64,000 nt of DNA from Candidatus Nomurabacteria bacterium (lineage in GTDB: Bacteria; Patescibacteriota; Minisyncoccia; Phycocordibacterales; UBA9973), in contig JANYAX010000012.1 in assembly GCA_025361085.1 (NCBI GenBank), positions 255-64,254 of the forward strand. Reading direction: 5' to 3'. The notes beneath the pieces were generated by a model. It ran no database searches. It was given only the letters and a program-made list of their open reading frames with translations, and had not been told where the DNA came from. Numbering within the stretch: position 1 is the stretch's first letter; each line of letters begins with the position of its first letter. Positions 9,272 to 64,000 of this stretch are shown in pieces. Position numbers and translations under genes: made by a program.

Positions 9272-9505
9272 TTAATTACAAAACCATTCTTTTTCACTTA
9301 TTCCTGACTGAAGAATGACTCCCTTTAAGGTTCTAGGCTTAATTGATTGTTTACCATGAAAAGGAACACAAACATTTCTTAATATTCCTTCATGATACCC
9401 AACATAATAAAAATGACTGGCATTCGTATAATTAAGTTTAAACCCTTTTTCTTTTAGGAAAGATTCTACATCTTTAAATGTCCAATTAAAAAATCTTTTT
9501 GGCAT
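9272..9505 (-). CDS. hicA: HicA-family mRNA interferase toxin (YcfA-like)
   Basis: 77 aa. SH..Y … VPFHGKQSIKPRTLKGVILQSGI matches the HicA dsRBD-like fold motifs. Overlaps the upstream partner by ATGA. Confidence 0.6.
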   Translation of the reverse strand: MPKRFFNWTFKDVESFLKEKGFKLNYTNASHFYYVGYHEGILRNVCVPFHGKQSIKPRTLKGVILQSGISEKEWFCN

Positions 9506-9807
9506 TATACTCTTGAAACTCCATACATGTTAACTAAATATGGAGATTTAACAGGCGTGGGAGAATGAAGAATTTCCCAAAGTTTTTCATATTCATTATC
9601 CACTTTTTGATTCAATGATTGGTATCGCGAGCCCTTTATTTTTTTTGCAGATTCAATGTATCCGCTCACAGCTTGAAGAAGATTAAAAAATGCAAGCTTG
9701 GGATCATCACTAGATTCAACAATATTAAACTCAAGTGCCACAGCATACCATGTATCCTCATCCTTGAAAACTATATGCCTAAATGTACCTTTTGTCAGTG
9801 TATTCAT
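9505..9807 (-). CDS. hicB: HicB-like antitoxin (UPF0150/RNase H-like fold)
   Basis: About 100 aa. FRHIVFKDEDTWYAVALEFNIVESSDDP … resembles the HicB N-terminal domain. The ORF could start at 9828 (first in-frame ATG) or 9807. Confidence 0.5.
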   Translation of the reverse strand: MNTLTKGTFRHIVFKDEDTWYAVALEFNIVESSDDPKLAFFNLLQAVSGYIESAKKIKGSRYQSLNQKVDNEYEKLWEILHSPTPVKSPYLVNMYGVSRV

Positions 9808-9879
9808 ACTAACAATATAGCATAACAATGTAAAAAATTAAAGTCGTTAGAAAAACCAGAAAATTATGATAATAATCAT

Positions 9880-9912
9880 CCCCCAGATAGTGGCCTTGCC
9901 ACTATCTGGGGG
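9880..9912. repeat. Palindromic element copy 1 (CCCCCAGATAGTGGC-ctt-GCCACTATCTGGGGG); probable ftsH terminator
   Basis: Perfect 15-bp stem. The same element in inverted orientation is at 43396-43427. Confidence 0.7.
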
Positions 9913-9917
9913 AGTTT

Positions 9918-9985
9918 CGTATGTGTTATGTGTTATATGTTATATGTTATGCGTTATTCGTTATTCGTTATTCGTTATTTGTTTC
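9918..9985. repeat. Simple-sequence repeat tract (GTTAT hexamers followed by 3-4 x TTATTCG heptamers) spanning the ftsH stop codon
   Basis: Read directly: …tgttatgtgttatatgttatatgttatgcgttattcgttattcgttattcgttattt…. Confidence 0.6.
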
Positions 9986-11896
9986 TTCGCGTTTCTTTGG
10001 CATTATCCCGTTCGCAATTATTATCTCATTGAATTCTTTCTGTTCAAGTGTTTCTGCTTCGATAAGCTTCCCAGCGATAGCATCGAGGACTTTTCTCTTG
10101 TCGGAAAGTATTTCGCGAGCTATATTGAATGCACCGTTCATAATTTTTGAAACTTCTCCGTCGATAAGAGCGCTAACTCTCTCGGAATATTCTTTATCAT
10201 TTACACCTTGGCCAAACATTGTCCTTCCCCCATCACTTTCAAGCGCGATAGGCCCGATCTCATCACTCATCCCCCATCTGGTCACCATAGCGCGAGCAAG
10301 ATTTGTCGCTACTTGCAGATCATTCGACGGTCCAGTCGTAATATCACCGAAAATCATTTCCTCTGCGACATAACCACCGAGAGACATCGCAATATCATCA
10401 AGAAATTCTTTTTTACTTTGCATTCGGCGTTCTTCAAGTGGAAGATTGAGTGTGTAACCTCCAGCACGCCCACGAGACACGATAGAAACTTTGTGGACCG
10501 GGTCGGCATATTCGAGAATCGAAGCCAGAAGTGCATGGCCGGCTTCATGATAGGCAGTAATCTCTTTTTCTTTTTTAGAAAGCAAATGACTTTTTCTTTC
10601 TGGCCCCATCATAACTTTTTCAATAGAACGAACAAGGTCAAACTGTGCAACTTTCTTTCGATCTTCTCGAGCAGCGAGAATTGCCCCTTCGTTCATAAGA
10701 GAATACAAATCCGCACCAGAAAAACCCGGGGTACGCTCAGCAATAACTTTCAAATTTACATCTTCGGCAAATGGTTTCTTTTTCGAGTGTATTGTGAGGA
10801 TGTCCAAGCGGTCTTCTCTGTCTGGCAATTCAAGCACAACCCTCCTGTCGAAACGCCCTGGGCGAAGAAGCGCTGGATCGAGAACATCGGAACGATTAGT
10901 GGCCGCCATAACAATAACTTTTTCATTTGGTTCAAAACCATCCATCTCAACGAGTATTTGGTTTAATGTTTGTTCGCGTTCATCGTTCCCGCCGCCGACA
11001 CCAGTTCCACGTACACGCCCAACGGCGTCGATCTCATCGATAAAAACTATTGATGGAGCAGCTTTTTTGGCCATTTTGAATAAATCACGCACACGGCTTG
11101 CTCCGACTCCAACGAACATTTCAACGAATTCAGAACCTGACAAATGAAAGAATGGCACCGATGCTTCCCCAGCAACAGCACGCGCCAGCAAGGTCTTGCC
11201 TGTTCCTGGTGCACCCGTTAAGATAACTCCCTTAGGAATTCTGGCGCCAATATCCAAAAACTTTTTAGGATTTTTCAAAAAATCTACAATTTCTTTCAAT
11301 TCTTCTTTCGCTTCTTTAGCTCCAGCGACATCTTTAAATGTAACTTTATTATTTTTATCATTTGGATCGGTGATACGTGCTTTCGATTGACCAAAAGTAA
11401 AAGCTTGCATTCCTTGGCCTTTGACTTGTCGAGTTAGCATCCAAACAAAAAATACAATCAATAATACTGGTAACAAAAATGGCATAATATTTAACAACCA
11501 AAACCAAAACCCTGTTTGATTTTTTATTTCAATAGGAGTCGATGCGAGCTCGGCAGGAGTCACTCCGTAATTGAACAACGTTGTCGAAAGAGAACTCTCT
11601 ACTTCTTTTTTTGCTTTACCTAGTATGCCATCTTTGAAAGTTACATTCACATCGTTACCCTCTACATCAATCTTTTGTATTGTTCCGGCCGACACTCCTT
11701 TGGCAACATCAGAAATAGTGAGACTTTTAATATTTTCAGCTGGCTTTGATAGGTACGAATACGCAACAGTAATCGCCATGAAAATGAAAATCGCGATGAA
11801 AATCTGATTCACCAATTTTGGCGTTTTCTTCGGTATCATCCCCTTTGGTAATTGGGGCATATCTTTATTGTTTGGTTTATTATTATCTGTGTTCAT
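9968..11896 (-). CDS. ftsH: ATP-dependent zinc metalloprotease FtsH
   Basis: 642 aa. Two N-terminal TM segments, Walker [19 protein letters not shown], second region of homology, zinc motif HEAGHAL. Confidence 0.95.
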
Positions 11897-34025: not shown

Positions 34026-36767
34026 CTATTTTCTATATTTTGCCATTATTTCTTCCTCGACTTCTTCACGAGGGCGGCCATATTTGAGGTAAGATAATTC
34101 TTTTATCTTTTCTACCATCTCTTTGTTTCCTGGTGGTGTTAGACTCCAGTGAGAAGTCATATTAAATGGTTTAGTTGGCACCCCATTCACAAGCATACTT
34201 ACATATGAATTGAAATTATCTAATTTCATAATATCGCTTGCAGTAAACGTTGGTTTGAATTTTTGCTCGACAAAGTTGGCATCTTCGGTACTGATACGAT
34301 AAATAGCCATTGAACCAACGTTCCCAAACACTGCGTTTTTAATATTTTCTTCAAGCTGTGAAATGTATTGGTGTGCGATAGTCAAAGACAAGCGATATTT
34401 TCGAGCCTCTGAAAGAATCGAGGCGATGGAGTCGGTCGTGACGTTTTGGAATTCGTCTATGTAAAGATAAAAATCATTCATTTTCTGCCCATACATATCG
34501 ACACGAGAAAGTGCTGCCATCTGAATCTTCCCTACCAACACAAGACCGATAAGATTTGCATTTATGTCACCCAAGCGCCCCTTTGAAAGATTTACAAGAA
34601 GAATTTTTTTGTTGTCCATTATTTCGCGAAAATTAAAAACAGATTTTTCTTGAAGAACGACAGGTCTCATAATGTCGTTCGAAATAAAGTTATCAAATTT
34701 AGAAGAAATATAAGGCACGAAGTTTGCAAGGGATTGATCACCTGTCGTCTGCTCGGCTCCAACCCAGAATTGTTTGATAATTGGATTCTTACATCGAGAA
34801 ACTTTCATGTCACGAAACGCTTTATCTCCAAGTACACGAGTAATCTCAAGTAAGGTACACCCTGATTCTGGATCTTCCATCACAAGAAAAGCACTATTTC
34901 TAAAATACTGTTCAAACATTGCTCCCCCACCTGTTTTCATATCAAAAAGTTTATTGAAAATTCCCATGAGCTCATTTACCACAAGAGTTTTTTGCTCTGG
35001 ATATTTTGGATCATACTCGAGCATATTTAGCCCCATTGGGCGAGCGGTATAAGCAGGATCGAAATAAATAACGTCATCAATTCTTTCTTTTGGAACATAA
35101 GAGAGAATATCTTGAATATCACTTCCGTGTGGATCAATAAAGCAACAACCCTCCCCATTCCTGATATCTTGTGCAATCATATTTTTCAAAATAGTTGTTT
35201 TACCTGTTCCCGTCTGACCGATGACGTACATGTGGCGCATCCTGTCTTCACGAGACATGTGTATAGGCGTATCTTTGCCATGGTAACTATTAATTCCGAG
35301 AAGTATTCCTTCACTACCCATCTCGATCGGCGCAGGTGCGATGCCGGCTTTAGCTTGTTTAAGTTGTGAAGATACAACTCCGTATGGGAAGTGGAAAATT
35401 GTTGCGAGTTCTTTTAAGTTGAGTGGCATTGAATAATCGTCAGAGAAAGTTCTATAAATGTAATCGTGTACGAGTTGCGAGAGGGCTGCCCCTTCTAGAT
35501 GATTGAAATTAAAACCATTACGATCTGCTTCGGTAAACTGATTGAATGATGATTCAATATCAGACAAAATTTGTTTTGACCTTACCTTGTCTTCTGCCGA
35601 GGCGATGATGCGAATATTCGAAGCCATGATTGTGCTCTTCATCTTCTCGGTAATATTTTCTACCGCTTTGTCATTTACTTTTTTATCTTCTTTGTGCTTA
35701 GAAGTACCAAACAATAATTCTTTCGCAACTGTTTTGAATTCTTTTGTAACTTGGCGGGTGAAACTCGATGCTGTACGGACAGACATACCATTTTTCACAT
35801 CTCCCAAAATAATCTTGTATTTGCGTATAATATCATCATCTTCTGGACATATAGATAATTGAATGGCGGCGCCTTCCCCACTTTTCTTGAGCTTTGTGAA
35901 AATATTTAAAATAATATTGAGCGGATCATGGTCAAAAGAATCGTATAACTTTATGGGGTAAACATCGTGATGGGCGAGTGTCGCATATGATGCTGAAACT
36001 GAACAATTTTCTGAAAAAATATTGTAATCGTCTGGAACCTCTACAATTTTCGCATTTGGATGAACTCCAAATAATTGCTTTTCAAATAAATCTGATTTAT
36101 GAGATGGAACTGCTGCATAAAATACAAAGTTGTCACTTCCTTCTGAAAGGGCAATCTCAAGAGTGAAATGATTGCGATTATAATTCTCTCTTCCTTCACC
36201 GACAGAATGCATTCCAGAATAAAATTGCTCCATAGCGGTCAATAATTCTTTGAGCCCTTTCTTGGCTCCTTCATCGTCATTCATATCTGGAAGAGTAATT
36301 TCGAGAAGCTTCATATCAAGCGCTTTGAAAAGTGGAGTATTTTCTTTAAGACCAGGGACTTTGTGAGTACTATATAAATATTGAACTACGAATCTATGAA
36401 AATCACTATCAATATGTGGATTGTTCATCTTGGCAACAATTGAGAGAGCATTCGAGATTCCTTTATCGAGCAAAATACCGAGTAATTCTTCCATCTTTCC
36501 GTCATGAGTTTCAGGGTGAAGGCGAAGAATGAGTTGTTCTGATTCTTTAGCATTCATAACTGCGCTTTTGTGCATGACATCTTCTGGTCCAAATTTTTTG
36601 TATTCAGAAATCACATTGTGTGCGAGGTCTTCTTTGTTCACTTCTTTCCCTTGTTCAACCAACGCTTTTTCTTTTTCTGCAATATGTGCACGCAAAAACT
36701 CCAACTCCTCTTGCGGGGTTTTAAATTTTGGAGCATTCTCTAGTTTTAAACCAAAATTTTCTGCCAT
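34026..36767 (-). CDS. VirD4/TraD-like type IV coupling-protein-family P-loop ATPase with a large (~480 aa) soluble N-terminal domain of unknown function
   Basis: 913 aa. Walker A IGQTGTGKTT, T4CP-like CFIDPHGSD, Walker B LYIDEFQN, C-terminal TraD/TraG all-alpha region. No TM segments. Confidence 0.5.
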   Translation of the reverse strand: MAENFGLKLENAPKFKTPQEELEFLRAHIAEKEKALVEQGKEVNKEDLAHNVISEYKKFGPEDVMHKSAVMNAKESEQLILRLHPETHDGKMEELLGILLDKGISNALSIVAKMNNPHIDSDFHRFVVQYLYSTHKVPGLKENTPLFKALDMKLLEITLPDMNDDEGAKKGLKELLTAMEQFYSGMHSVGEGRENYNRNHFTLEIALSEGSDNFVFYAAVPSHKSDLFEKQLFGVHPNAKIVEVPDDYNIFSENCSVSASYATLAHHDVYPIKLYDSFDHDPLNIILNIFTKLKKSGEGAAIQLSICPEDDDIIRKYKIILGDVKNGMSVRTASSFTRQVTKEFKTVAKELLFGTSKHKEDKKVNDKAVENITEKMKSTIMASNIRIIASAEDKVRSKQILSDIESSFNQFTEADRNGFNFNHLEGAALSQLVHDYIYRTFSDDYSMPLNLKELATIFHFPYGVVSSQLKQAKAGIAPAPIEMGSEGILLGINSYHGKDTPIHMSREDRMRHMYVIGQTGTGKTTILKNMIAQDIRNGEGCCFIDPHGSDIQDILSYVPKERIDDVIYFDPAYTARPMGLNMLEYDPKYPEQKTLVVNELMGIFNKLFDMKTGGGAMFEQYFRNSAFLVMEDPESGCTLLEITRVLGDKAFRDMKVSRCKNPIIKQFWVGAEQTTGDQSLANFVPYISSKFDNFISNDIMRPVVLQEKSVFNFREIMDNKKILLVNLSKGRLGDINANLIGLVLVGKIQMAALSRVDMYGQKMNDFYLYIDEFQNVTTDSIASILSEARKYRLSLTIAHQYISQLEENIKNAVFGNVGSMAIYRISTEDANFVEQKFKPTFTASDIMKLDNFNSYVSMLVNGVPTKPFNMTSHWSLTPPGNKEMVEKIKELSYLKYGRPREEVEEEIMAKYRK

Positions 36768-43436: not shown

Positions 43437-43928
43437 TTATAGGGGTTTTTGGTATTTTTTTATTTGGTGTTCTCGCCAGATGAGCCAGAGGATTATGATA
43501 TCCATGACAGTTAAGACTATCAGCAAAATCGAATGGCCTTTGAAAATATGGTAAATTTGATAAATAATCAGACCTCCCAACCCTACGAGCGAAGCCGGGT
43601 AAGCCCAAGCTTTTCTTAAATATAACCCTGTAATGATTGCAACTTTTATAATTCCATGACTTAAAAGATAGTAGACGATAAATAACTTCCCTGTCGATGT
43701 TATATGATTAGCATTATTCACCAAGAAATTAGCAATGAAATTGTTGGGCTCTTCAATGAGCTCACTATGAGTTATAGTAACAAGGAAATTTATTATTCTG
43801 TTGGTACTGACAAAATACAAAAATAAAGCAGATACAACTTCAAGCGATGCTTGGATGAACTTGAGTAGCAAGCTCACATTGTAAGCGATGTAAATATTCT
43901 TTTCTTCCTTCGCCTTGGTCATGTGCAT
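43437..43928 (-). CDS. Small polytopic membrane protein (DUF2127-like), inserted within the spc ribosomal operon
   Basis: 163 aa, 4-5 TM helices. Located between rplE and rpsN, where no gene is normally found. Confidence 0.5.
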   Translation of the reverse strand: MHMTKAKEEKNIYIAYNVSLLLKFIQASLEVVSALFLYFVSTNRIINFLVTITHSELIEEPNNFIANFLVNNANHITSTGKLFIVYYLLSHGIIKVAIITGLYLRKAWAYPASLVGLGGLIIYQIYHIFKGHSILLIVLTVMDIIILWLIWREHQIKKYQKPL

Positions 43929-47491: not shown

Positions 47492-48511
47492 TTAATACCT
47501 TTTTCGAAAAAGAACTTTGGCCGTCAGAATAATAAACGGCAAATTCCATAAGCGCAAAGAAATGCATGATCCCAATGAAATAGCATTAGCTCCCGCTTTT
47601 TTGAATTGCCATACATTGTATGGGTTCATAATACCGCCACCACCAATTATCGGCTTCGTTATACCCATTCTCCTAGCTTCTCTTATCCATGCCAAGGCAT
47701 AAGGTCTGATCGGATGTCCGGACACACCTCCACGTCCTTTGATTAAAAACTGATCCTGATGTTTGTCGAGGGGAGAAACACGATGGCCGAATTGCTTATC
47801 TTTTTTGAAATATTTCTCCTTAACAAAATCGGGTAGTTCATTGAACAGGATTGTATTTATGGCAGTGAACCCATAAATGTATTTAAGCTCTTGCAACCGC
47901 AAAGCAACTTCAATCGGGAACTGCCACCCAACTTTAACGATAATGGGTAATTCGAGCTGTGAAAGAATCGCATACTCTGGGATAAAACTTTCCAAAAAAT
48001 TGGCAAGAGCATTATGCCCGGTGTTTGGACAAGAAATATTCCAATTCAAGAATATTTTAGAAGCAGAAAATTTATGAAGATTTTCTTTCAGAAGCAATAC
48101 GATAAGCCTTGCTTCCCCTGTTCTTTCCTCAGCAGTATCTCCCACTAACATTATTGAAAGATGAAGCTCTCCTTTTATTTTATAGAGCTTACCTTGTCTA
48201 AGGATGGGGCCCAATCCAGGACCGGAAAGTGAAAAGTTATTCACCATCCAGCCTTTCCAAAAATTTAACCCCACACACTTGGGGAACATCTTTTCAAGAG
48301 AGTAGCCATCCGAGGCAAGTTGCGCATTACCAATTCTTTTGGTCGCCGTCGAGGTTTTGGATTGAAATGTAACCCAATTCCGAAGAATTAGTCCAAACAA
48401 CCCAAGGGTCAGAATGTTCAGGAGAAGATAATGTTTATAACCCTCCCCCATAAAACCCAAGCTACCAGACGCAGCTATCACAGGTTTAGCAAAATAATGA
48501 TGTTTCTTCAT
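47492..48511 (-). CDS. pyrD: Dihydroorotate dehydrogenase-family TIM-barrel flavoenzyme (PyrD-like)
   Basis: NISCPNTG active-site loop, GGGGI phosphate-binding motif. Confidence 0.6.
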   Translation of the reverse strand: MKKHHYFAKPVIAASGSLGFMGEGYKHYLLLNILTLGLFGLILRNWVTFQSKTSTATKRIGNAQLASDGYSLEKMFPKCVGLNFWKGWMVNNFSLSGPGLGPILRQGKLYKIKGELHLSIMLVGDTAEERTGEARLIVLLLKENLHKFSASKIFLNWNISCPNTGHNALANFLESFIPEYAILSQLELPIIVKVGWQFPIEVALRLQELKYIYGFTAINTILFNELPDFVKEKYFKKDKQFGHRVSPLDKHQDQFLIKGRGGVSGHPIRPYALAWIREARRMGITKPIIGGGGIMNPYNVWQFKKAGANAISLGSCISLRLWNLPFIILTAKVLFRKRY

Positions 48512-48671: not shown

Positions 48672-49778
48672 ATGAAAAAATCATTTCAAATCTTGTTGCC
48701 TTTTGACAGGCACGGCCACTTGCGTGAAGTAAATACGCTTATGCCTGAAGTCCTGATTCATTCACTGAAAAGTTTTTGGGGTATGGTTGTTATGCCAAAT
48801 ACTGCTATCCCAATTACTGATTATGAATCTGCAGTGCGTTATCGTGAAGAAATAAAAACCCTAAGCAATAAGTATGGGTTTGGGGGGAATTTCCTTCCGG
48901 TCATGACTGGCTACCTGACCGACAATACAAATCCGGAAAATGTAAAGAGCGGATTTCTAAATGGTGCATGGAAAGCCATGAAACTCTATCCACACGGTGC
49001 GACAACAAACTCCGACAAAGGTGTTACTAAACTGGAAAAAATATTTCCGGTATTAGAAATGATGCAAAAAATCGGAATGTCGGTGCTTGTTCATCCAGAA
49101 ACAGATGTTTCAAGGAGCGATATTCCATTCATGGACAGAGAGCGCGTATACACAGAAGAGTCATTGTTTTTAATCCATGAACGTTTTCCTGAATTAACCA
49201 TTTCGGTTGAACACATTTCAACCCGAGAAGCCATGGAATTTGTTGAGTGGTGTCCAGATAATGTTGTTGGAACAATAACTCCGCAACATATCATGTATAC
49301 ACATGATGCACTTTTCCATAATGGAGTCCCCCCGTTTAAACCAGGGCTCTACCCTGAGAATATGTGCTTGCCGATACTAAAAACACAGGATGATGTAAAT
49401 TACATCCGAAATGCCATCATGCACGGAGAGAGAAGATACAAATTCGGAGCTGGGACAGATACTGCACCTCACACCCAAACAGCAAAGAAAGAAAACTGTA
49501 GCAGATGTGGGGTGTTCAATGCCTCACACGCCGTTGAGTTCTACACCATGATCTTTGACCAGGAAGGGATGCTAAACGATGAGAAAGGAATTCAAACTTT
49601 CCAAAACTTTATGTCCGTAAACAATTTATGGATTTATGGAATTAAAGAATTTCCAACTGAAATGATCACTCTGGTAAAAGAAGATCAGCAAATCCCTGAA
49701 ATTTATCCGGGAGACATTCGACCTTTCAAAGCCGGTCAGACTATCCCTTGGACAATGAAAAGGGAGTTGATTAAATAA
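48672..49778 (+). CDS. pyrC: Dihydroorotase (amidohydrolase family)
   Basis: FDRHGHLRE metal-binding motif, VMPNT motif, additional His ligands. Confidence 0.7.
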   Translation: MKKSFQILLPFDRHGHLREVNTLMPEVLIHSLKSFWGMVVMPNTAIPITDYESAVRYREEIKTLSNKYGFGGNFLPVMTGYLTDNTNPENVKSGFLNGAWKAMKLYPHGATTNSDKGVTKLEKIFPVLEMMQKIGMSVLVHPETDVSRSDIPFMDRERVYTEESLFLIHERFPELTISVEHISTREAMEFVEWCPDNVVGTITPQHIMYTHDALFHNGVPPFKPGLYPENMCLPILKTQDDVNYIRNAIMHGERRYKFGAGTDTAPHTQTAKKENCSRCGVFNASHAVEFYTMIFDQEGMLNDEKGIQTFQNFMSVNNLWIYGIKEFPTEMITLVKEDQQIPEIYPGDIRPFKAGQTIPWTMKRELIK

Positions 49779-49892: not shown

Positions 49893-50624
49893 ATGGTTCC
49901 AGAAGAAAGATTTAATTCGAAAGAAATCAGCAAAGCGATAGCTTTGGCTGGGTTAAAGATCGGGGCAGTTAAAATAAGACCAGAGGATCCCTTTTTGTGG
50001 GCATCGGGTACTTATAACCCGATCTACAATGACAATCGGAGGTTTTTGTTTTATCCGGCATATCGCGAACTCATTACAAATGGGTTTGCCGAAATTATTT
50101 ACAAATTGGGTTTACATACAAATCCTAATTTAGTAATCGCTGGTACTTCAACCGCAGGGATTCCCCATGGATCCGCCCTTGCTACAAAACTTCACGTCCC
50201 CTTTATCTACATCCGGGATAAGCCGAAGGATCATGGACTCAAAAACCAAATCGAGGGAATTGATGTGGACGAAGATCTCAAAGGTTATCACGTCGTATTA
50301 ATCGAGGACTTAATTTCGACAGGGGGCAGTAGTGTCGCTGCAATTGCTGCAATACGAAACGCCAGCGGTTCCTGCAACTTATGTCTTTCGATTTTTAATT
50401 ACGGATTACCGAACCCCCCAAAAATGTTTAATGGAGATATCCCTTATAACGAAAAGGGAGATCGGCTACAAAGCCCCTGTGAAATAACTTCTTTACTTTA
50501 CTATCCTAAGCTGATATCCATAGGGATAGAAAAAGGATTAGTGAGTAAAAATCACGAGAAAACATTACTAGAGTGGATGAGTAATCAACCACACTGGGGT
50601 GAAAATCACGGATTCGTCCGATAA
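49893..50624 (+). CDS. pyrE: Orotate phosphoribosyltransferase (type I PRTase)
   Basis: PRPP-binding motif VVLIEDLISTGGS. Confidence 0.7.
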   Translation: MVPEERFNSKEISKAIALAGLKIGAVKIRPEDPFLWASGTYNPIYNDNRRFLFYPAYRELITNGFAEIIYKLGLHTNPNLVIAGTSTAGIPHGSALATKLHVPFIYIRDKPKDHGLKNQIEGIDVDEDLKGYHVVLIEDLISTGGSSVAAIAAIRNASGSCNLCLSIFNYGLPNPPKMFNGDIPYNEKGDRLQSPCEITSLLYYPKLISIGIEKGLVSKNHEKTLLEWMSNQPHWGENHGFVR

Positions 50625-50674: not shown

Positions 50675-51460
50675 TTACTTTTCAATTTCTGCCATTGTCA
50701 ATCGGCAACTTTCTTCGGCACCTATACCAAGTTGCAAATTGCCTTTGGTTAATTGAGCTCCCATGACAACAAAAGTAGCTCCTAGATCAAGAGCTTCTCG
50801 GACTCCTGTTGTTCGTTTTTGGTGTTCGCCGGCCTTTTCCATCCATTTATCACGGATACCTGGGACAACAAAACCGCAACCAGCATAACAATTGAGATGA
50901 AGCATTGAAAGCTCGTGAGCTGAACATACAACCAGATCGTATGGCTCGGGGTTAATGTCTTTCTCAAATTTGATCTTCTTTTGATAGAATGAACGAAGCC
51001 GATCAATGTCAGAATAAATCTTATCAGCTGGGGTCATTCCAAAACGATCGACACATTCATCTTCACTTATATCAGTCGGTAGTGAGACCATCGCCAATTT
51101 GGTATTTGGCAATAACTTCCGAAGTTCAATGATGCCGGCGACGCTACATCCTGAAGATACAGTCAGGATGTTGGCTGGTGTATTTAAGTATTTTCTTAAT
51201 ACATTTACCAATGTGGCCGAAACATCGAAAATCTTTAAATCCAGGAAAAATCCGATCGGTAAACCTTTCCCTTTTAGACACTGCACAATCTCTTCGACGA
51301 TTTGTGGACCACCCAGATCCAAGTTGTGAACTCCGTCATTCAGTTTGATGTGAGAAATGATGTCCGTTAGACCTTTTATGTTTAGTGTCTTTTCAAGGGC
51401 ACCAAACAATGCGGCGGCTGTGGCATAGCCGTCGAGAGGAAGAATTGCTACTCTTTTCAT
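50675..51460 (-). CDS. pyrF: Orotidine-5'-phosphate decarboxylase
   Basis: DLKIFD (DxKxxD) catalytic motif. TIM-barrel length. Confidence 0.65.
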   Translation of the reverse strand: MKRVAILPLDGYATAAALFGALEKTLNIKGLTDIISHIKLNDGVHNLDLGGPQIVEEIVQCLKGKGLPIGFFLDLKIFDVSATLVNVLRKYLNTPANILTVSSGCSVAGIIELRKLLPNTKLAMVSLPTDISEDECVDRFGMTPADKIYSDIDRLRSFYQKKIKFEKDINPEPYDLVVCSAHELSMLHLNCYAGCGFVVPGIRDKWMEKAGEHQKRTTGVREALDLGATFVVMGAQLTKGNLQLGIGAEESCRLTMAEIEK

Positions 51461-55462: not shown

Positions 55463-56659
55463 TTATTTGTTGATTTTTGTTACGACACCTGCGCCGACTG
55501 TTTTACCACCTTCACGGATAGCAAAGTGCATTTGTTCTTCAAGCGCAACTGGGGTTACAAGTTTAACACCTAGCTTAACTGTATCTCCTGGCATAACCAT
55601 TTCTACACCAGCTGGAAGAGTTGTGTCTCCTGTAACGTCTGTTGTACGAATGTAGAATTGAGGTTTGTATCCAGTAAAGAATGGGGTGTGACGTCCGCCT
55701 TCTTCTTTCTTCAAAATGTAAACTTCACATTCGAATTCTGAATGAGGAGTAACTGTTCCTGGTTTAACAAGAACTTGTCCACGAGTAACATCTTCTTTCT
55801 TAATTCCGCGGATAAGGATACCGGCGTTGTCGCCTGCCATACCTTCTTTCAAATTTTTATTGAACATTTCGATACCAGTGACTGTTGTCTTTGCTGTATC
55901 TTTAATACCAACAATTTCAACATCTTCACCAACTTTCACAATTCCGCGTTCAATTTTACCAGTAACAACTGTTCCACGTCCTTCGATAGAAAAGATATCT
56001 TCGATAGGCATTAGGAATGGTTTTGTGATATCGCGTTCTGGAACTGGAATATATGTATCGAGAGCGTTGACCAATTCAAGAATATTTTTAGCGTATGGGT
56101 CAGAATTATCTTTTGATTCAAGCGCCTTCAAAGCTGATCCACGGATAACTGGAGCTTGTCCATCAAAGCCTTGTTTTACAAGGAGTTCACGGACTTCTTC
56201 TTCGACGAGGTCAAGCATGTCGGGGTCATCAACCATGTCGCATTTGTTTAAGAAAACGATAATTTTAGGAACGTTAACTTGCTTTGCAAGAAGGATGTGC
56301 TCACGTGTCTGTGGCATAACTCCATCTGTCGCAGCGACAACGATAACAGCACCATCCATTTGGGCAGCACCAGTAATCATGTTCTTAATATAGTCAGCGT
56401 GTCCTGGAGCATCAATGTGTGCGTAGTGACGTGTTGGTGTCCAATATTCGTTGTGAGAAAGAGCAATCGTGATACCACGAGCTTTTTCTTCTGGAGCTGA
56501 GTCGATTTGATCAACACCTTTAATTTTGGCTCCATATCCTTCACCTTGACGTGCCAAAATTGCTAAAATAGCCGCAGTTAATGTGGTTTTCCCGTGGTCG
56601 ACGTGACCAATAGTACCAACGTTAACGTGAGGCTTATCTCTGTTAAATTCTTCTGCCAT
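55463..56659 (-). CDS. tuf: Elongation factor Tu
   Basis: [18 protein letters not shown] motifs. 398 aa. Confidence 0.97.
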
Positions 56660-56840: not shown

Positions 56841-59800
56841 CTATCTTTCTTTTATTATGAGATCAATGACCTTCGTCTTAATTTCTTTAGTGCCTGTTCC
56901 GGTACTATTGTTACATTTTAGGGTATAAGTAGTATTAACTTTAGGAGAAACCTTCACAGGAGGGATGTCATTACTGTCAGTTCTACCTTGAGTATTTACA
57001 ACCTCACCAGCAGTCGAACTGGTTATTGAACAAGAATCGGCAATTGTCGATTTCCAAATAAGAGTTGATACCCCCCCTTGGAAAATCGTTTCTGGATCTG
57101 CGGTAAACGTAAATATATCATCACCTCCACCAGGAAGATTTAGTTTGCATTTTGCTCCATCCCAAGTCGTATTATTTGCACAAGTTGCCGTCGTGTTAAT
57201 AGTCTTCACTAATTGTCCTCCGCTGTAAAGATTGAGTATTTTGTTCTCTAAGTGAGAAATATCGAATGAGGCTGTTCCAGAAACTGCTGGGGTAGAATTA
57301 ACCACAGTTAAGTTTCCAGGATTTGCAGTGAGAGATGAATTCCCAATAGGGTTCGTTACAGACCAACTGAGTCCAGCCGTGCAACTACTATGATCTGCTA
57401 TTATAGAACACCCCGGAGTAGAGATTTCACCAGAAGGCACAACACATTTACTTCCATCCCAGAAAGTTTGAACTGGGGTGTTTGTACATGTTGCATTCAC
57501 AGTCTTTTCATCTAATTTAACTCCATTATGATAGAGGAAGAATGTTCTACCTCCATACTCGACAGCGTAGCTAACCCCTATGGTGTTTGTATTTGCAGGT
57601 GTTCCGATAGTAATATTTGTTGGAGTAGTAACCGAAGAAGTTGCCGTTGCTAAAGGATATAGTGTTTGCCATTTTATCGTCGAGGAACAACTACTTTCCC
57701 CGGCTCCGATTTCACAAGAACTTGGAGTAGTTGTGACAATCCCACTCGGAGTCGTACATTTCATATTCGTAGAATCCCAAGTTGAAAGTGAATCACACGT
57801 TGCCGTTACTACTTGAGATTGAGACAATAATACAACATTATGATAAAGGTAGAATGTTGTTGAACCAAAATTAATTGCATTTGGAACATTTGTACCAGAG
57901 GTTAAAGCAGATATGGTTGTTCCAATTGGATTATTTTTTGTAACAGCGGTAGGGTTAGCAGTCAGATTCGCAGTTGTCCAATTTAATGTTGAATTACATG
58001 TACTTGCTCCAGCTGTGATAATACATGAGGTTGCCGATATATTCCCCGTTGGCTTCAATGTAAATGTTGCTGTACAAATTTTATTTGCATTCATTGTTAC
58101 TTGCCCACTTGCATTACAATCACCACTCCAGCTTACGAAAGTTGAACTTGCATCAGGTGTTGCTGTAGCAGTAACCGGGGTATTGTAATTAAATGAAGTC
58201 GAACATGTTGCTCCACAATTAATTCCAGCAGGATTCGAAGTTACTGTTCCTGTCCCTGATCCTATTTTGGAGATAGTTAGAGTATAAGAATCTATTACAC
58301 ACTTTGTGCCATCCCAATGATTATTAGCGGCACAATTTGTATTTACCGTTGCCTGAGCGAGCAAAACAGAATTGTTGTAAAGATTGAAGATCACACCAGA
58401 AACATTGTAAGGAGCAGTAAATGTTTGAGAACCAGAATTCCCGTTTGCTGGACTTGGTGTCCCCGTTGCGCTAGTCACAGCTGATGTTCCGATTGGATTT
58501 GTTGTCGTCCATGACAAGGTTGGAGTTGTACAACTACTTGCACCTGTTGCAATCGTACAAGTTGATGATGCTGGAGTTAGTGTCCCTGTCATTTGAATAA
58601 ATGTGGCACTGACAGTACAGTTAGATGTGATTGTTCCTGTTGTATATATTGTTCCAGAAAGTGAACCGGCACAACCTGAGGCTGAAGCAATGTATCCAGA
58701 ATTTGGAGTAACAGTAAATGTTGTTGTTGAACCATAATTTACAGTTCTTGTTGCAGGAGAAATTGTTCCACCGGTGCCAGCAGTTCCTGAGACAGTGTAG
58801 TTAGAAGGTACACATTTTAAGGTATCCCACACCGTCCCACTCACACAACTTGCATTTGCTGTTGCTTGGGCAAGTAAAACACTGTTGTAAAGATAAAATG
58901 TTCGAGAACCATAAGCAACGGTGTAAGTTGTAGAACCAGAGTTTCCATTTGCAACAGTAATACTTGTAGGAGTTGTGACTTGAGATGTTGCCTTGGGATT
59001 TGAAGTACTCCAATTTAATGTTGAGCTACAACTACTTGCACCTGATGCGATCGTACAATCTGAAGCGGTGATAGATCCTGATGACCCGACAGTGACAGTT
59101 GTTGAAGCACTTCCACTTGTACTATTTAATCCAGTACATGAGAGAGTAAATGTTGTATCTGCTGTTAATGCTCCTGTCGAAACACTACCTGATGTTCCCT
59201 TTGATCCTGACCATCCACCACTTGCTGTACATGATGTAGCATTTGTTGATGACCAAGTAAGAGTTGAGGAATCATTGTAAGCTATACTTGTTGGACTTGC
59301 AGTTAGAGTGACAGAGAGGGGTGCGCATTTTAACCCATCCCAAGTTGTCCCACTCACACAACTTGCATTTGCTGTTGCTTGAGAGAGAAGAACGGAATTG
59401 TTGTAGAGATATAGATTTCTAGAACTATAATATACAGTGACTGATTGATTCGTACCTGAGTTCCCAGAATAAACCGTGAAATTTGGAGTTGATACATTAC
59501 TATTATTCACATCACTTGTTATAGCAGATGTTCCGATTGGGTTTGTTGTTGTCCAAGTTATATTTGAAGTACAGTTATTTGACCCTGAAACAATAACACA
59601 ATTAGGAGCGGTTAATGACCCGTACATAAATGTGGCAGTAACAGTACAATCTGCAGTTATTGCGCCAGTAGTGTAAGTATTCCCTGAAAGTGACCCGCTA
59701 CAACCTGTAACAGATTTTATTGCACTATTTGTATTTGGAGTAACAGTAAATGTTGTTGTACCTCCATAGTTTACAGTTCTTGTTGCAGGAGAGATTGTTC

Positions 59801-62186
59801 CACCTGCGCCAGCTGTTCCAGTAACAGTATATGAATTAACTACAAAATTGGCTGTAACTGTATTAGCTGAAGTCATGACAACAGTACATGTTCCTGTACC
59901 AGAACAACCCCCACCACTCCAACCAGAAAATGTCGAACCTGTTGATGGTGATGCCGTGAGAGTAACCGAAGTATTATAATTAAATGCAGTTGAACAAGTT
60001 GCTCCACAATTAATTCCAGCAGGATTCGAAGTTACTGTTCCAGAACCGGTGCCAGCTTTGGTAACAGTGAGAGAATATGTATTAATTGTAAATGTTGCGG
60101 TACAAGTTTTTGAAGCATTCATTGTTACTGAACCATCTGTACAATCGGCATCACCACTCCAACCAGAAAATATTGAACCTGTACTTGCCGAAGCTGTCAT
60201 ATTCACAACTGTCCCAGAGTTATAGGTTCCAGCTCCAGTAACAGTTCCCGAGCCAGTACCTGCTTTATTTATCGTGAGAGTATAAGTTGGTAATGTTGTG
60301 AAAGTCCCCTGACTCGAATACCCTGGTCCTGGTACATTTGAAGCAAAACCAAAATAGTAATACAAAGTATTTGGTGATAAACCTGAAATGTTTAGAGAAT
60401 ATGTTCCTGTTATAGAACATGTAGTAGAACCACTATAAGTCGAAGGATTCGGTGAAATCCCCCAATAAAACCCACAATAAGGAGCAACAAGAGTAGCAGG
60501 AAATCCGAGCGAAGTGATATTCGCTCCTAGAGTTGCAGTTGTCGAAGTAATATTTGTTGCTGTTGGACTCGTAACAGTAGGAACTACATTGGGAGAAACA
60601 CAAGTCGAAGTTGCGCTATTCCAAACTGTTCCAGATGCACAAGAAACTGTGATACCTAAAGTGGCAAGCGTATTATCTACAGCTCCTCCATTATTTTCTC
60701 CATCAACTTTGTTAATTGAGGAAAGAGTTGTCGAACCGCTGTTGGCTCCATTGGTAATGATCCCACTTCCACTCAAGGTAAGACCTGTTCCTGAATTGCC
60801 CGTCGTTATAGCAGAGCCTCCTATTTTCAATGCAGTCGGAACTCCAGAATATGGGTTAGTTGTATCCCATGCTAAAGTTGACATCGAGCAACTCCCCGCC
60901 CCTGACGCAATAGTGCAAGAAGATCCACCACCTCCTGGAATGAGTATTCCTGATTGACCGAAAACAGTGACTACTGGAGAAGTTGCATTATCACAAATTA
61001 ATCGGAAATTATTAGTATTATCATTTATGGATACATTGGCTCTATTGCCAGGAGTATCTTGGGTGTATGTCTTAACCAAAGATCCATTTTTTTCCAAAGA
61101 ACAATTTTTACCTGATGGAAGTCCTGAGATTACAGCATACAAATATGTGTCTGAAAGAGGAGTTCCTTTCCCCACTGCCACTAAATCTTTCGTTGGATCT
61201 GAAAGAAGTCCTAAAGAAATTGAAATAGAAGGAGAAAATGTTGCAGTTACCGTACAATTAGCATTTATGGCTCCAGTTGTATATGTATTACCTGATAATG
61301 ATCCACTGCAACCTGTGACTGATGAAATGCTGTATCCTGAATCAGGAGTAACGGTGAAATAAGTTGTGTAACCTGGTGTAACAGATCTAGAAGATGGAGA
61401 AATAGAACCTCCTGAACCAGCAGTAGCCGTTACAGTATAAAGACTAGAAGAAACACATTGATTTGATCCATTATCCCAATATGAACCAGCCATGCAATAA
61501 GCATGTGCAGTTTTAGAATCGAGTTGAATACCATTATGATAAAGTCGATAATTCACCCCACCAGAAGCTTGAGAAATATATTCTAAAACTGACCCTGAGG
61601 TAGATGTGCCAATTACGTTATAACCAATATTAGGATAATTCATTCTGTCCATTTCGACAGAACTTGTCGCATTGTAAACATTCCAGCTAACGGTAGAATA
61701 ACAACCAAACTCTCCTATATCCATATAACAATCTGAAGCATTAATGGAACCAGAAACAGGACCAGGGCCACCTCCGCCCCCAACAGTAACAGTTATACTA
61801 CTAGAAGACTGTGTATACAAAGAAGCTGTACAAGTTACCGTAAAAGTCGTAGTTTTTAATATGTTAAAATTCTGTGAACTTACCCCATTACCTTGTGCCG
61901 CAAATGCAATTTTCGTCTTAAACCAATCAAATAAATTTTTATTATAATTATCGAGATTAACTCCTACAACAGGGGCTCCATCACTAGAAGCTGATGCTGT
62001 ACAGGTAGCAGTAGCTGGAGTAACATTCCAAGAGATAGTCACTGTTCCTCCTCCAGAAGGAAGGGGAGATGGCGGCGATGCTGTAAGACTATTGAAAGTA
62101 ATAGCCGCAGCCTCTACTCCTCTTGCAAAAAAAATTGAGCATAAAAACAAAATGGAAAGAAGAGATATTTGTAATACTTTTTTCAT
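56841..62186 (-). CDS. Giant secreted/surface protein (1781 aa) with a signal peptide and multiple divergent InlB B-repeat (Flg_new-like) domains plus Ser/Thr/Gly-rich Ig-like repeats
   Basis: Signal peptide [26 protein letters not shown]. Repeated [27 protein letters not shown]…FSGWSG…C…VTATF units. Cys pairs throughout. About 90-aa C-terminal domain shared with the neighbouring gene. Confidence 0.8.
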
Positions 62187-62290: not shown

Positions 62291-62326
62291 ATAGCCGTTG
62301 CATAAAGTAACGGCTTCTTTTTTTTA
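62291..62326. terminator. Terminator hairpin (AGCCGTTGCATAAAGTAACGGCT + T-run)
   Basis: Between the lipoprotein gene and the giant gene. Confidence 0.6.
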
Positions 62327-62347: not shown

Positions 62348-63313
62348 TCAAAATTTGGGATGAACATATGTATCTTCAATCCAAATTTTACCAACAGAGT
62401 CAGCATAAACTTTTATTGACTCATATCGACAGACTAATGTGTCCGTGCTAACTTTGATTAAAGTCCTTTCCCCAAAACCGTTTATTTTGTTCCCATTTAA
62501 CTTCCATTCACCCGTCCACATGCGTGGTTCGCTACCACAAAGAATCTCTCCTTTGTCTACTTTCACAGTTTGGTCAGGAAAAAATGTCAGAATATCATCT
62601 GCTAAACAAGGAAAGTCTTCGGCAGTGAGAGAAACTACCCATGGGCCAATATTTGGCGTAGGAGAATCTCTGCTAAAAATCCACATCCATGAACCAAAAT
62701 AGCTGAGTAGATCTTCATCGGCCGGAGGAAGGACTTCGATGTTCACGCTATCGTAAGCGATTTCACCACCTTTACCATAACCCCGTACAAAATAATTGCC
62801 GGTAGACGTTAAACCTTGGGCAATAAATGTTTGGGACATGCCAGATTTTGATAACCCTGGTATGTTTGTTTCAATAGAGTCCACATATTCGAGAGCAATA
62901 TTGAAAGTAGAGTTACCTCTGTATTTTACAACGAGAGGATTTGCGCTGATTCGGACAGTAGGTGCAGGAACCTGCAACTTTGGTGTTACCACTAAGGAGC
63001 CTTCGATAGTTTTACCATTTTCTGTGACACAAATAATAACTACTTCTTGTTTACCTTTTAATGAATCAATATCGTATGAATCATTCGGTTTGCTTGAAAT
63101 TTTTATTTTGTTCACATAAACTGAAACTTCTTTGAATTCTCCAGTAACATTCCAATTTACCTTACACGAACTCAGGTATTCCGGCGTCGTAGAAGGCAGA
63201 GCAATAAACGAAATTACAGGATCAGGATGAACTACAACAATAGGTTCTTTTTCACATCCTACAAGTAGCAGGGAAAGAAAAAGACCGGCGAGAAAGAAAT
63301 AAGTCTTTTTCAT
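62348..63313 (-). CDS. Lipoprotein of unknown function (lipobox LLVGC)
   Basis: Signal peptide plus LVGC lipobox at the N-terminus. 321 aa. Confidence 0.6.
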   Translation of the reverse strand: MKKTYFFLAGLFLSLLLVGCEKEPIVVVHPDPVISFIALPSTTPEYLSSCKVNWNVTGEFKEVSVYVNKIKISSKPNDSYDIDSLKGKQEVVIICVTENGKTIEGSLVVTPKLQVPAPTVRISANPLVVKYRGNSTFNIALEYVDSIETNIPGLSKSGMSQTFIAQGLTSTGNYFVRGYGKGGEIAYDSVNIEVLPPADEDLLSYFGSWMWIFSRDSPTPNIGPWVVSLTAEDFPCLADDILTFFPDQTVKVDKGEILCGSEPRMWTGEWKLNGNKINGFGERTLIKVSTDTLVCRYESIKVYADSVGKIWIEDTYVHPKF

Positions 63314-63549: not shown

Positions 63550-64000
63550 CTATTTTTCTTTTAATTTAAAACCATTGACAATAACTGTGACATAATCGGT
63601 ATCTGTCGTTCCATCCTTGATACAGACAATTCCGTAAGTTGTCGTTACCAATGGGCTAACCTGCACTGGGTTGTTATCAGGATCACTATCTGGCTTTCCT
63701 TCTGTATCAAAGTACCCATACCCAGGCATAGCTGTACATCGGCTTGCGTTTGATTTCCAAGTTAAAAGTGAAGTTCTGCCTTTGAAAATTTTCGCTGGAG
63801 TAGCAGTGAGAGTTGCATTTAATTTGTTTCCATCTTTGTCTCCGTCAACTTTACAATTTTGTGCAAAACAAAATCTCGAGTCAGTTCCATTACCAGTCAC
63901 AGTACAAGAGCGTGTTCTTGTTTGGACTCCACTTTCACTACAATCTATTGCACTACATGAACTCCAATTTCCATAAGTACAGGTGCCATCGGTTCCATCT
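63550..64000 (-). CDS. C-terminal part of a secreted protein with a thrombospondin type-1-like repeat, a TSP3-like Asp-rich motif, and a C-terminal domain shared with the giant protein (5' end outside the window)
   Basis: The reading frame is open to the window edge. NWSSCSAIDCSESGVQTRTRSC matches the TSP1 consensus W..CS..CG.G.Q.R.R.C. DGDKDGNK resembles a TSP3 calcium-binding motif. C-terminal …LLTWKS…C…VSPLVTTTY…C… aligns with the giant protein C-terminus. Confidence 0.55.
   Translation of the reverse strand, partial: DGTDGTCTYGNWSSCSAIDCSESGVQTRTRSCTVTGNGTDSRFCFAQNCKVDGDKDGNKLNATLTATPAKIFKGRTSLLTWKSNASRCTAMPGYGYFDTEGKPDSDPDNNPVQVSPLVTTTYGIVCIKDGTTDTDYVTVIVNGFKLKEK

Follow-up and report, generated by a model that had tools for sequence, protein, structure and literature searches.

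In the tripartite C-terminal signals, i.e. LPXTG/sortase, PEP-CTERM/exosortase and GlyGly-CTERM/rhombosortase (10.1101/2023.06.07.544157), a short motif marks the extreme C-terminus of several secreted proteins per genome within one lineage. Here we describe an element which shares these properties. It was encountered in a stretch of 64,000 nucleotides (nt) from a Candidatus Nomurabacteria bacterium (contig JANYAX010000012.1 of assembly GCA_025361085.1; the window), at the end of a predicted secreted protein of 1781 amino acids (aa), the giant, and at the end of the product of a partial gene nearby, the neighbour. This tail, as we call it, is unlike the tripartite signals in that it is itself the C-terminus: neither a hydrophobic helix nor a basic cluster follows the motif, and a sortase-like gene is absent nearby. 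The check for a linked sortase or exosortase, which an initial annotation of this DNA had recommended, found none among the Pfam-scanned open reading frames (ORFs), 23 in the window and 3 in a second locus (L001) with the same gene. The pattern LP.T[GASN] occurs nowhere in giant or neighbour, and a C-terminal membrane helix is absent, hydrophobic 19-aa windows being N-terminal only. We rate the tail, with the two synteny-linked forms described below, as a variant of the C-terminal-signal idea with a predicted function.

A second precedent is the C-terminal domain of the type IX secretion system (T9SS; Por_Secre_tail), an immunoglobulin (Ig)-like beta-sandwich placed last in many secreted proteins. 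The module preceding the tail is similar in this respect, yet it is also found internally and in tandem, and neither PF18962 nor TIGR04183 gave a match at E ≤ 0.1 in Pfam or NCBIfam. Bacteria of the candidate phyla radiation (CPR, Patescibacteria) are not known to have an outer membrane or a T9SS. A third precedent are the pilus-displayed proteins of the TcpF-TcpB and CofJ-CofB systems and tip adhesins such as PilY1. TcpF and CofJ dock on pili via a short terminal peptide. Those relatives of the giant with a KKP-type tail (see below) likewise are secreted non-pilins encoded beside pilus assembly genes and end in a short linear motif. In contrast, their motif is C-terminal instead of N-terminal, a beta-propeller is missing and the proteins of the window are not pil-linked.

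The body of the giant is of a more familiar kind, and the giant itself we rate as an ordinary object. Giant Ig-like adhesins of the SiiE and BapA/LapA type share with it long arrays of Ig-like beta-sandwiches and an expected rod-like extracellular shape. These adhesins use a type I secretion signal; the CPR host is single-membraned. Unlike them, the giant has a Sec signal peptide, lacks RTX or Ca-binding repeats, contains 2-4 Cys per module and is only ~10% identical. With the secreted, repeat-rich surface proteins carrying InlB B-repeats it shares six repeats above the family cut-off; however, these make up only ~1/4 of the giant, and the remainder is mostly composed of two further modules, types A and B, which together with the tail lie outside the family definition.

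The display of host-contact proteins by ultrasmall CPR bacteria is poorly understood. Among CPR attachment factors, type IV pili alone have been tested genetically (PMC11623550). Our overall reading, which we consider fairly probable when all its parts are taken jointly, is that the giant is a Sec-exported, rod-like, modular surface protein of a CPR bacterium, that giant and neighbour form a paralogous pair, and that the terminal-specific tail would serve as a docking peptide. A lineage-specific tail, the forms of which track the pilus operon and tuf, provides a testable handle, and a simple C-terminal pattern yields genome-wide substrate lists. If the tail were merely structural, the locus would be an ordinary pair of repeat adhesins.

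A generic Ig-like module and a terminal-specific tail

The initial annotation had aligned the last ~90 aa of the giant with the end of the neighbour and had proposed a conserved extreme-C-terminal domain on different secreted proteins. The alignment was confirmed (39% identity, E 3e-14). As an observation speaking against a terminal domain, it had named a shared region that is just one more copy of an internal Ig-like repeat, and such copies were found. The ~80-aa module in question, type A, is a two-Cys Ig-like unit with the pattern ...L.W.S..A.SC...TTY.L.C...V.V. It is not covered by a Pfam model and produced only weak I-set, DUF5979 or fn3 echoes. It recurs within the giant and at the N-terminus of both proteins. 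The two C-terminal copies match each other with 50.8 bits, and so do the internal copies of giant and neighbour (50.8 bits; 40% identity); the N-terminal copy of the giant matches its internal copy with 37.7 bits (E 6e-9). An exhaustive HMMER search with a three-copy profile in 1.84 billion representative proteins returned 10,962 proteins at E ≤ 1e-3 and 613 at E ≤ 1e-30, with 5-46 copies per protein among the best matches. The best 150 proteins contain 1,447 copies; a copy ≤15 aa from the C-terminus is present in just 16 of these proteins. A subtype marked by 'FDTGG' and typical of C-terminal copies was considered as terminal-specific and rejected, being internal in 14 of 23 instances. The ~80-aa type-A module is a generic Ig-like repeat and is not terminal-specific. 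Types A and B are abundant Ig-like modules missing from current domain libraries, which matters for the annotation of giant metagenomic proteins.

These data bear on the proposal that the ~90-aa region is a dedicated sorting or anchoring domain on otherwise different secreted proteins, be it for sortase- or exosortase-like processing or in the manner of a T9SS C-terminal domain. It has some appeal, as the C-termini of giant and neighbour are reciprocal best matches, a type-A module comes last in many relatives and T9SS C-terminal domains are Ig-like as well. Yet type A also occupies internal and N-terminal positions of both proteins and occurs internally or in tandem in thousands more, the two proteins are paralogues and not different proteins, and the scans identified neither an LPXTG motif or membrane anchor, nor a sortase in the window, nor a Por_Secre_tail or NCBIfam sorting domain. 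In addition, 9 of 21 genome matches have the tail behind a domain other than type A. By the measure of the initial annotation itself a sorting domain is already largely refuted, and we consider it very unlikely.

What is terminal-specific is shorter. The last 7-10 residues are a conserved element found only at the C-terminus and common to many secreted CPR proteins; to this extent the earlier idea of a conserved C-terminal end was right. Both window proteins end with hydrophobic-x-Glu-x-COOH (IKER in the giant, LKEK in the neighbour). Nearly all relatives which carry type-B modules share this ending (...KKKPIFIEN, KKPVFIEN, NVPIFKED, SLDIKEN, DISIIEQ, TLTVQEQ). A DNA scan of 185,579 species genomes for K-K-P-[IVM]-F-[IKMN]-E-[ND]-stop located 21 matches that end long ORFs (142 to >2248 aa) at true stop codons. 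All 21 are in metagenome-assembled genomes of CPR/Patescibacteria, labelled Nomurabacteria, Paceibacterota, Moraniibacteriota, Minisyncoccia or 'Saccharibacteria'. The other 18 matches, all non-CPR, are within ORFs of 9-51 aa and were read as chance; 7 of the 18 end at TGG, admitted by the degenerate stop pattern. The search for further proteins with the same ending, also suggested earlier, was productive for the tail, while the ~80-aa module turned up mostly internally.

The domain in front of the KKP tail in the 21 genome matches is type A in ~11, a Cys domain with the pattern WTWxC in 6, CLNGxxNPPxC repeats in 2 and another domain in 1. Because the preceding domain differs, the tail is an independent module. 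The tail codons vary synonymously; therefore, conservation is at the protein level. For the same reason a conserved DNA element, i.e. a terminator or a recombination site, was rejected. The relatives were also sampled irrespective of their ends, by the type-B motif, which gave 62 unique ORFs with a stop codon inside the locus. Here, a penultimate Glu was present in 45/62 (73%) compared to 15/305 (5%) of the other ORFs of the same loci (Fisher p 1e-30). Of the tails linked to tuf, 11/11 have a penultimate Glu and 11/11 are hydrophobic at the position three places ahead of the last residue. An isopeptide bond via the last residue was considered and is unlikely, since this residue varies (N/D/Q/K/R/H/F). 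The tail is apparently undescribed: a literature search of incomplete coverage for its motif strings or for a CPR C-terminal sorting signal found no such paper.

Could the tail have been retained by common descent alone, without a function of its own? The family shares type-A and type-B modules as well as synteny, and the sampled loci may be close lineages. Against this, the penultimate Glu is kept in 27/27 cases over both synteny classes, next to an Ig module of just 30-40% identity; the tail is retained where an unrelated domain has replaced the one before it, its codons vary synonymously and its two consensus forms follow two gene neighbourhoods. Pure paralogy as the full explanation is therefore improbable in our view.

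Two Cys-rich units adjoin the tail in other proteins, and neither has a Pfam model. CLNGATNPPxCT repeats are present in the neighbour (aa 755-830) and, in other CPR proteins (L017, L021), directly before a KKPIFxE[ND] tail; a 'WTWxC...C' domain has this position in six genomes.

Two tail classes in two gene neighbourhoods

Genes with KKPxFxE[ND] tails are located directly upstream of pilB-pilC-pilin, those with KV[IV][DT]LxIKE[QN] tails directly upstream of tuf. By ORF clustering, 17 of 23 genome loci have a PilB-type ATPase adjoining the tail gene, 13 have PilC and 5-6 a pilin or minor pilin. In the sample drawn irrespective of the tail, 19 ORFs were followed by pilB-pilC-pilin within 16-140 nt. 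Sixteen of the 19 end with K-K-P-x-[FIY]-x-E-[ND], and the remaining 3 look frameshifted. Eight ORFs of this sample were followed by tuf; all eight have the penultimate Glu with the consensus K-V-[IV]-[DT]-L-x-I-K-E-[QN]. A tail-bearing giant gene precedes tuf also at L004 (P0151, 2682 aa) and L047 (P0199). The end of our giant, KVI plus DLIIKER, agrees with the tuf-linked consensus, and we count the giant in this subfamily. At the tuf-linked metagenome loci sampled, pilB was absent within 4 kb downstream. At L050 and L125, tpiA-pgk comes directly after the KKP-class tail gene and the pil operon usually in between is missing, which suggests that pilus genes were lost or relocated in some lineages.

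How might the tail work? In the predicted structure it protrudes as coil beyond the last strand of the C-terminal type-A module. It may be a short linear peptide, unstructured beyond the final beta-strand, which a second protein recognises; in this way the exported protein would be docked or retained on a partner in the envelope. Binding would probably proceed by addition of the tail as a beta-strand to the partner; the tail would not act as a cleavable sortase-type signal. Because the KKP genes are directly upstream of pilB-pilC-pilin, the partner of this class would most likely belong to the type IV pilus. In the tuf-linked class, the adjacent lipoproteins of the window, L047 and L122 are candidate partners. 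A bolder version remains tentative, and we hold it to be possible rather than probable: the tail would be a Patescibacteria-specific, helix-free C-terminal docking or sorting signal. Through its KKP form, giant adhesins of Ig repeats would be loaded onto the type IV pilus or the complex at its tip, and through its KV[IV]DLxIKE[QN] form a further set of fibres would be attached to a different receptor of the envelope; the two forms together would specify the host-contact protein display of episymbiotic CPR cells.

Several points weigh against docking by the tail. PilB, PilC, pilin and prepilin motif are absent from the 64-kb window, and the tail of the giant belongs to the other, tuf-linked class. 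The link to the pilus is drawn from gene adjacency in relatives only, and adjacency is not interaction. A strong terminator hairpin separates many KKP-class tail genes from pilB, i.e. co-transcription is not implied. The sampled loci may cluster phylogenetically in Paceibacteria-like lineages, in which case the synteny counts would look more independent than they are. The tail of the neighbour, NGFKLKEK, has kept just the Glu and one hydrophobic position. Finally, the tail may be conserved simply as the end of proteins of common descent, with a role inside the protein that is structural and missed by a model of the monomer.

The same evidence speaks to the stronger claim that the giant is itself an adhesin associated with the type IV pilus, its tail docked on the tip complex of minor pilins. 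Such pili have a central role in CPR episymbiosis (PMC11623550). Genes of the KKP class immediately precede pilB-pilC-pilin in 17/23 genome and 19 metagenome loci, the penultimate Glu and the hydrophobic residue occur in both classes, and a protein with the variant tail GAVIEL (P0184) is pil-linked as well. The giant, however, lacks the K-K-P signature, the window is devoid of pil genes and prepilin motif, and none of the tuf-linked loci has pilB in the downstream 4 kb. As an assignment for the giant this is unlikely. One side observation concerns L058, where a type IV pilin-like gene (9447-10124; MYKFKNKKGFTLIELLVVVAIIG...) is located within the ribosomal operon between L2 and S19. As a tail-bearing pair precedes tuf at this locus, this may faintly connect pili with the tuf-linked class.

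Alternatively, the giant may be an S-layer or wall-bound sheath protein, with a tail that binds a wall polymer or the intervening lipoprotein and with a site upstream of tuf that would reflect very high expression. In favour are the conserved position right before tuf and a promoter-like region of its own; moreover, the gene of the giant is immediately preceded by a lipoprotein gene in the window, at L047 and at L122. Yet Pfam identified neither SLH, CWB2 or LysM nor any other wall-binding domain, and the lipoproteins of the three loci have no detectable homology to one another. We regard this as quite unlikely.

A paralogous pair of modular proteins

The features of the window are compiled in Table 1.

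Table 1. Features of giant, neighbour and flanking genes. Positions refer to the window unless L001 is given.
Feature	Position (nt)	Strand	Residues or detail	Basis
Giant gene, 1781-aa secreted multi-domain protein	56841..62186	-	stop codon 56841-56843	ORF list
Predicted signal peptide	62109..62186	-	aa 1-26	hydropathy and A-x-A cleavage site by eye
Type-A Ig-like module, N-terminal copy	61782..62105	-	aa 28-135, with ~30-aa insertion	two weak half-matches to type-A profile
Span with six InlB B-repeat modules	58059..61442	-	aa 249-317, 634-701, 703-782, 785-853, 1129-1196, 1300-1376	Pfam PF18998; individual boundaries read from sequence
Type-A Ig-like module, internal copy	59088..59318	-	aa 957-1033	BLASTP E 1e-7 and 7e-7 to both C-termini
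Type-B modules B6-B8, consecutive	57141..58046	-	aa 1381-1682	alignment of 11 copies, two proteins
Other type-B copies of the giant	61449-61751, 60594-60938, 59319-59621, 58806-59078, 58293-58586	-		
Type-A Ig-like module, C-terminal copy (noticed initially)	56865..57119	-	aa 1690-1774	39% identity, E 3e-14 to neighbour C-terminus
Extreme C-terminal tail	56844..56864	-	aa 1775-1781, DLIIKER	profiles anchored at C-terminus
3' end of paralogous 974-aa gene (neighbour), runs off the window	63550..64000	-	complete gene L001:5713-8637	translation
Weak TSP1-like stretch of neighbour	63853-63981			
Type-A C-terminal copy of neighbour	63574-63825			
Tail of neighbour	63553-63573		GFKLKEK	
Intervening predicted lipoprotein	62348..63313	-	321 aa, lipobox LLLVGC	ORF list
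Hairpin then T-run, 3' of lipoprotein gene	62293..62315	-	putative terminator	terminator scan and sequence
tuf (EF-Tu), conserved downstream neighbour, then S10 operon	55463..56659	-		ORF list, Pfam labels on contig

The identical 1781-aa protein is called on contig JAYSNT010000034.1 of GCA_043723505.1 (L001; exact-sequence look-up). The gene is also in a second assembly (73.5-kb contig), there with a neighbour of 980 instead of 974 aa, and the representatives of its 90% cluster are fragments of 39-49 aa from Logan assemblies. Much of the earlier description held: the hydrophobic N-terminus, the only 19-aa window of the giant with a mean Kyte-Doolittle hydropathy >1.6, is by eye consistent with a Sec signal peptide, the composition is rich in T (17.7%), S (14.5%) and G (10.4%) with 59 Cys, and divergent InlB B-repeats are present (PF18998 Flg_new_2; six stretches, E 7e-29, 100.1 bits against a cut-off of 23.6). 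PF18998 is the sole Pfam assignment; an NCBIfam scan assigned no family. The relatives found agree with the proposed CPR origin and adhesin-like character.

The InlB B-repeats are interleaved with type-A, type-B and unassigned modules. The type-B module has ~100 aa with four invariant Cys (C-x8-C...W.T.NP...FYLY...C-x10-13-C) and is without a sequence match in Pfam, NCBIfam or PDB. Eight copies are in the giant and three in the neighbour. According to self-comparison, the order in the giant is signal peptide, type A, B1, InlB1, an unassigned two-Cys module, B2, an unassigned FN3-looking module, InlB2-4, B3, internal type A, B4, InlB5, B5, InlB6, B6, B7, B8, C-terminal type A and tail. By this reading of the sequence the tally is about 20 beta-rich modules, i.e. 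6 InlB B-repeats, 8 type B, 3-4 type A and 2 unassigned. The Cys residues probably pair as disulfides within each module, as inferred by eye. At the DNA level, a duplication of 99 nt with 87% identity (58701-58799 and 59733-59831, spaced by 1032 nt) was detected. Therefore, the giant gene grew by internal cassette duplication.

Structure prediction, another check suggested at the outset, was done for the C-terminal part with AlphaFold2 and a 16-row alignment. The model is all-beta (predicted local distance difference test, pLDDT, 87.7) with two beta-sandwiches, B8 and the C-terminal type A, and the tail as coil. The type-A copy reached a pLDDT of about 90; its last strand comprises aa 1763-1774. 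A Foldseek search with this model returned tandem Ig domains (probability 1.0, E down to 3e-5), SiiE among them. Type-A and type-B modules are thus predicted to adopt an Ig-like beta-sandwich fold.

The likeness of giant and neighbour is not confined to the last ~90 aa. BLASTP aligned neighbour 447-680 with giant 1380-1614 (37% identity, E 3e-32) and neighbour 544-974 with giant 1377-1781 (31% identity, E 9e-26). Because of these long collinear alignments the C-terminal match represents the end of a ~430-aa paralogous block, and the two proteins are collinear over their last four modules (B-B-B/insert-A). As judged from the alignments, the C-terminal likeness is paralogy. Tandem pairs of tail-bearing genes are frequent at tuf-linked loci and are found upstream of tuf in the window and at L004, L058, L084 and L062. 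In the window the upstream 974-aa protein (...NGFKLKEK) is paired with the giant (...DLIIKER) downstream. The corresponding pairs are 594 aa (...STINIKES) and 758 aa (...VIDMSIKEQ) at L058, 836 aa (...NSINIIER) and 2344 aa (...VVDPVVNEN) at L084, and 882 aa (...SVNIIEM) and 2682 aa (P0151; ...ISIIEQ) at L004. Therefore, what had initially been noticed was a conserved two-gene cassette.

The complete neighbour, taken from L001, starts with a signal peptide, after which come, in this order, a type-A module that carries an insertion, CARDB (E 1e-10), two type-A and three type-B modules, four CLNGATNPPxCT repeats, a TSP1-like stretch and the final type A. The earlier label 'TSP1-like' is borderline. 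The pattern of the thrombospondin type-1 repeat, W-S-x-C-S...C...R-x-R-x-C, is present, yet in the window part PF00090 scored below its cut-off (E 0.017; 15.8 against 21.6 bits); the relatives P0173, P0181, P0185 and P0208 carry precomputed TSP_1/TSP1_spondin matches. Both paralogues open with a type-A module broken by an amphipathic insertion (GFLKIKKVFAA in the neighbour, L001:5788-6114). A family-wide N-terminal insertion (F..FK.K..FAA), hinting at head-to-tail assembly, was considered and dropped, as relatives lack the insertion and have unrelated N-termini.

Flanking genes

Giant and neighbour genes are not directly adjacent as initially described; the gene of the 321-aa lipoprotein lies between them. 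This protein had no Pfam or NCBIfam match and forms a sequence cluster by itself. By eye, its N-terminal segments look Ig-like and its C-terminal ~120 aa lipocalin-like. No homologue of it was found beside relatives of the giant. Between the hairpin behind its gene and the ATG of the giant lies an AT-rich stretch that resembles a promoter. At the other end of the giant gene, tuf begins 181 nt downstream.

Further downstream, the S10 ribosomal-protein operon is split between L2 (52347-53198) and L22 (46561-47007) by pyrimidine-pathway genes on both strands, i.e. a dihydroorotate dehydrogenase-like gene (47492-48511), a phosphoribosyltransferase (49893-50624) and an orotidine monophosphate decarboxylase-like gene (50675-51460). 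The insert also holds a 368-aa ORF (48672-49778) without assignment. At this position related loci have a DAGK gene instead and, in one case, a pilin gene. At L001:967-1446, flanked by the genes of trigger factor and H+-PPase, a 159-aa PaaX/Cas2-like protein is encoded; a CRISPR context is not visible. In the window, a DUF2127 membrane-protein gene (43437-43928) resides within the spc ribosomal operon adjoining L5, and a 913-aa protein (34026-36767) with signatures of VirD4/TraG-type coupling proteins (TrwB_AAD_bind, TraG-D_C) is encoded beside the secY-adk-map end of the ribosomal cluster.

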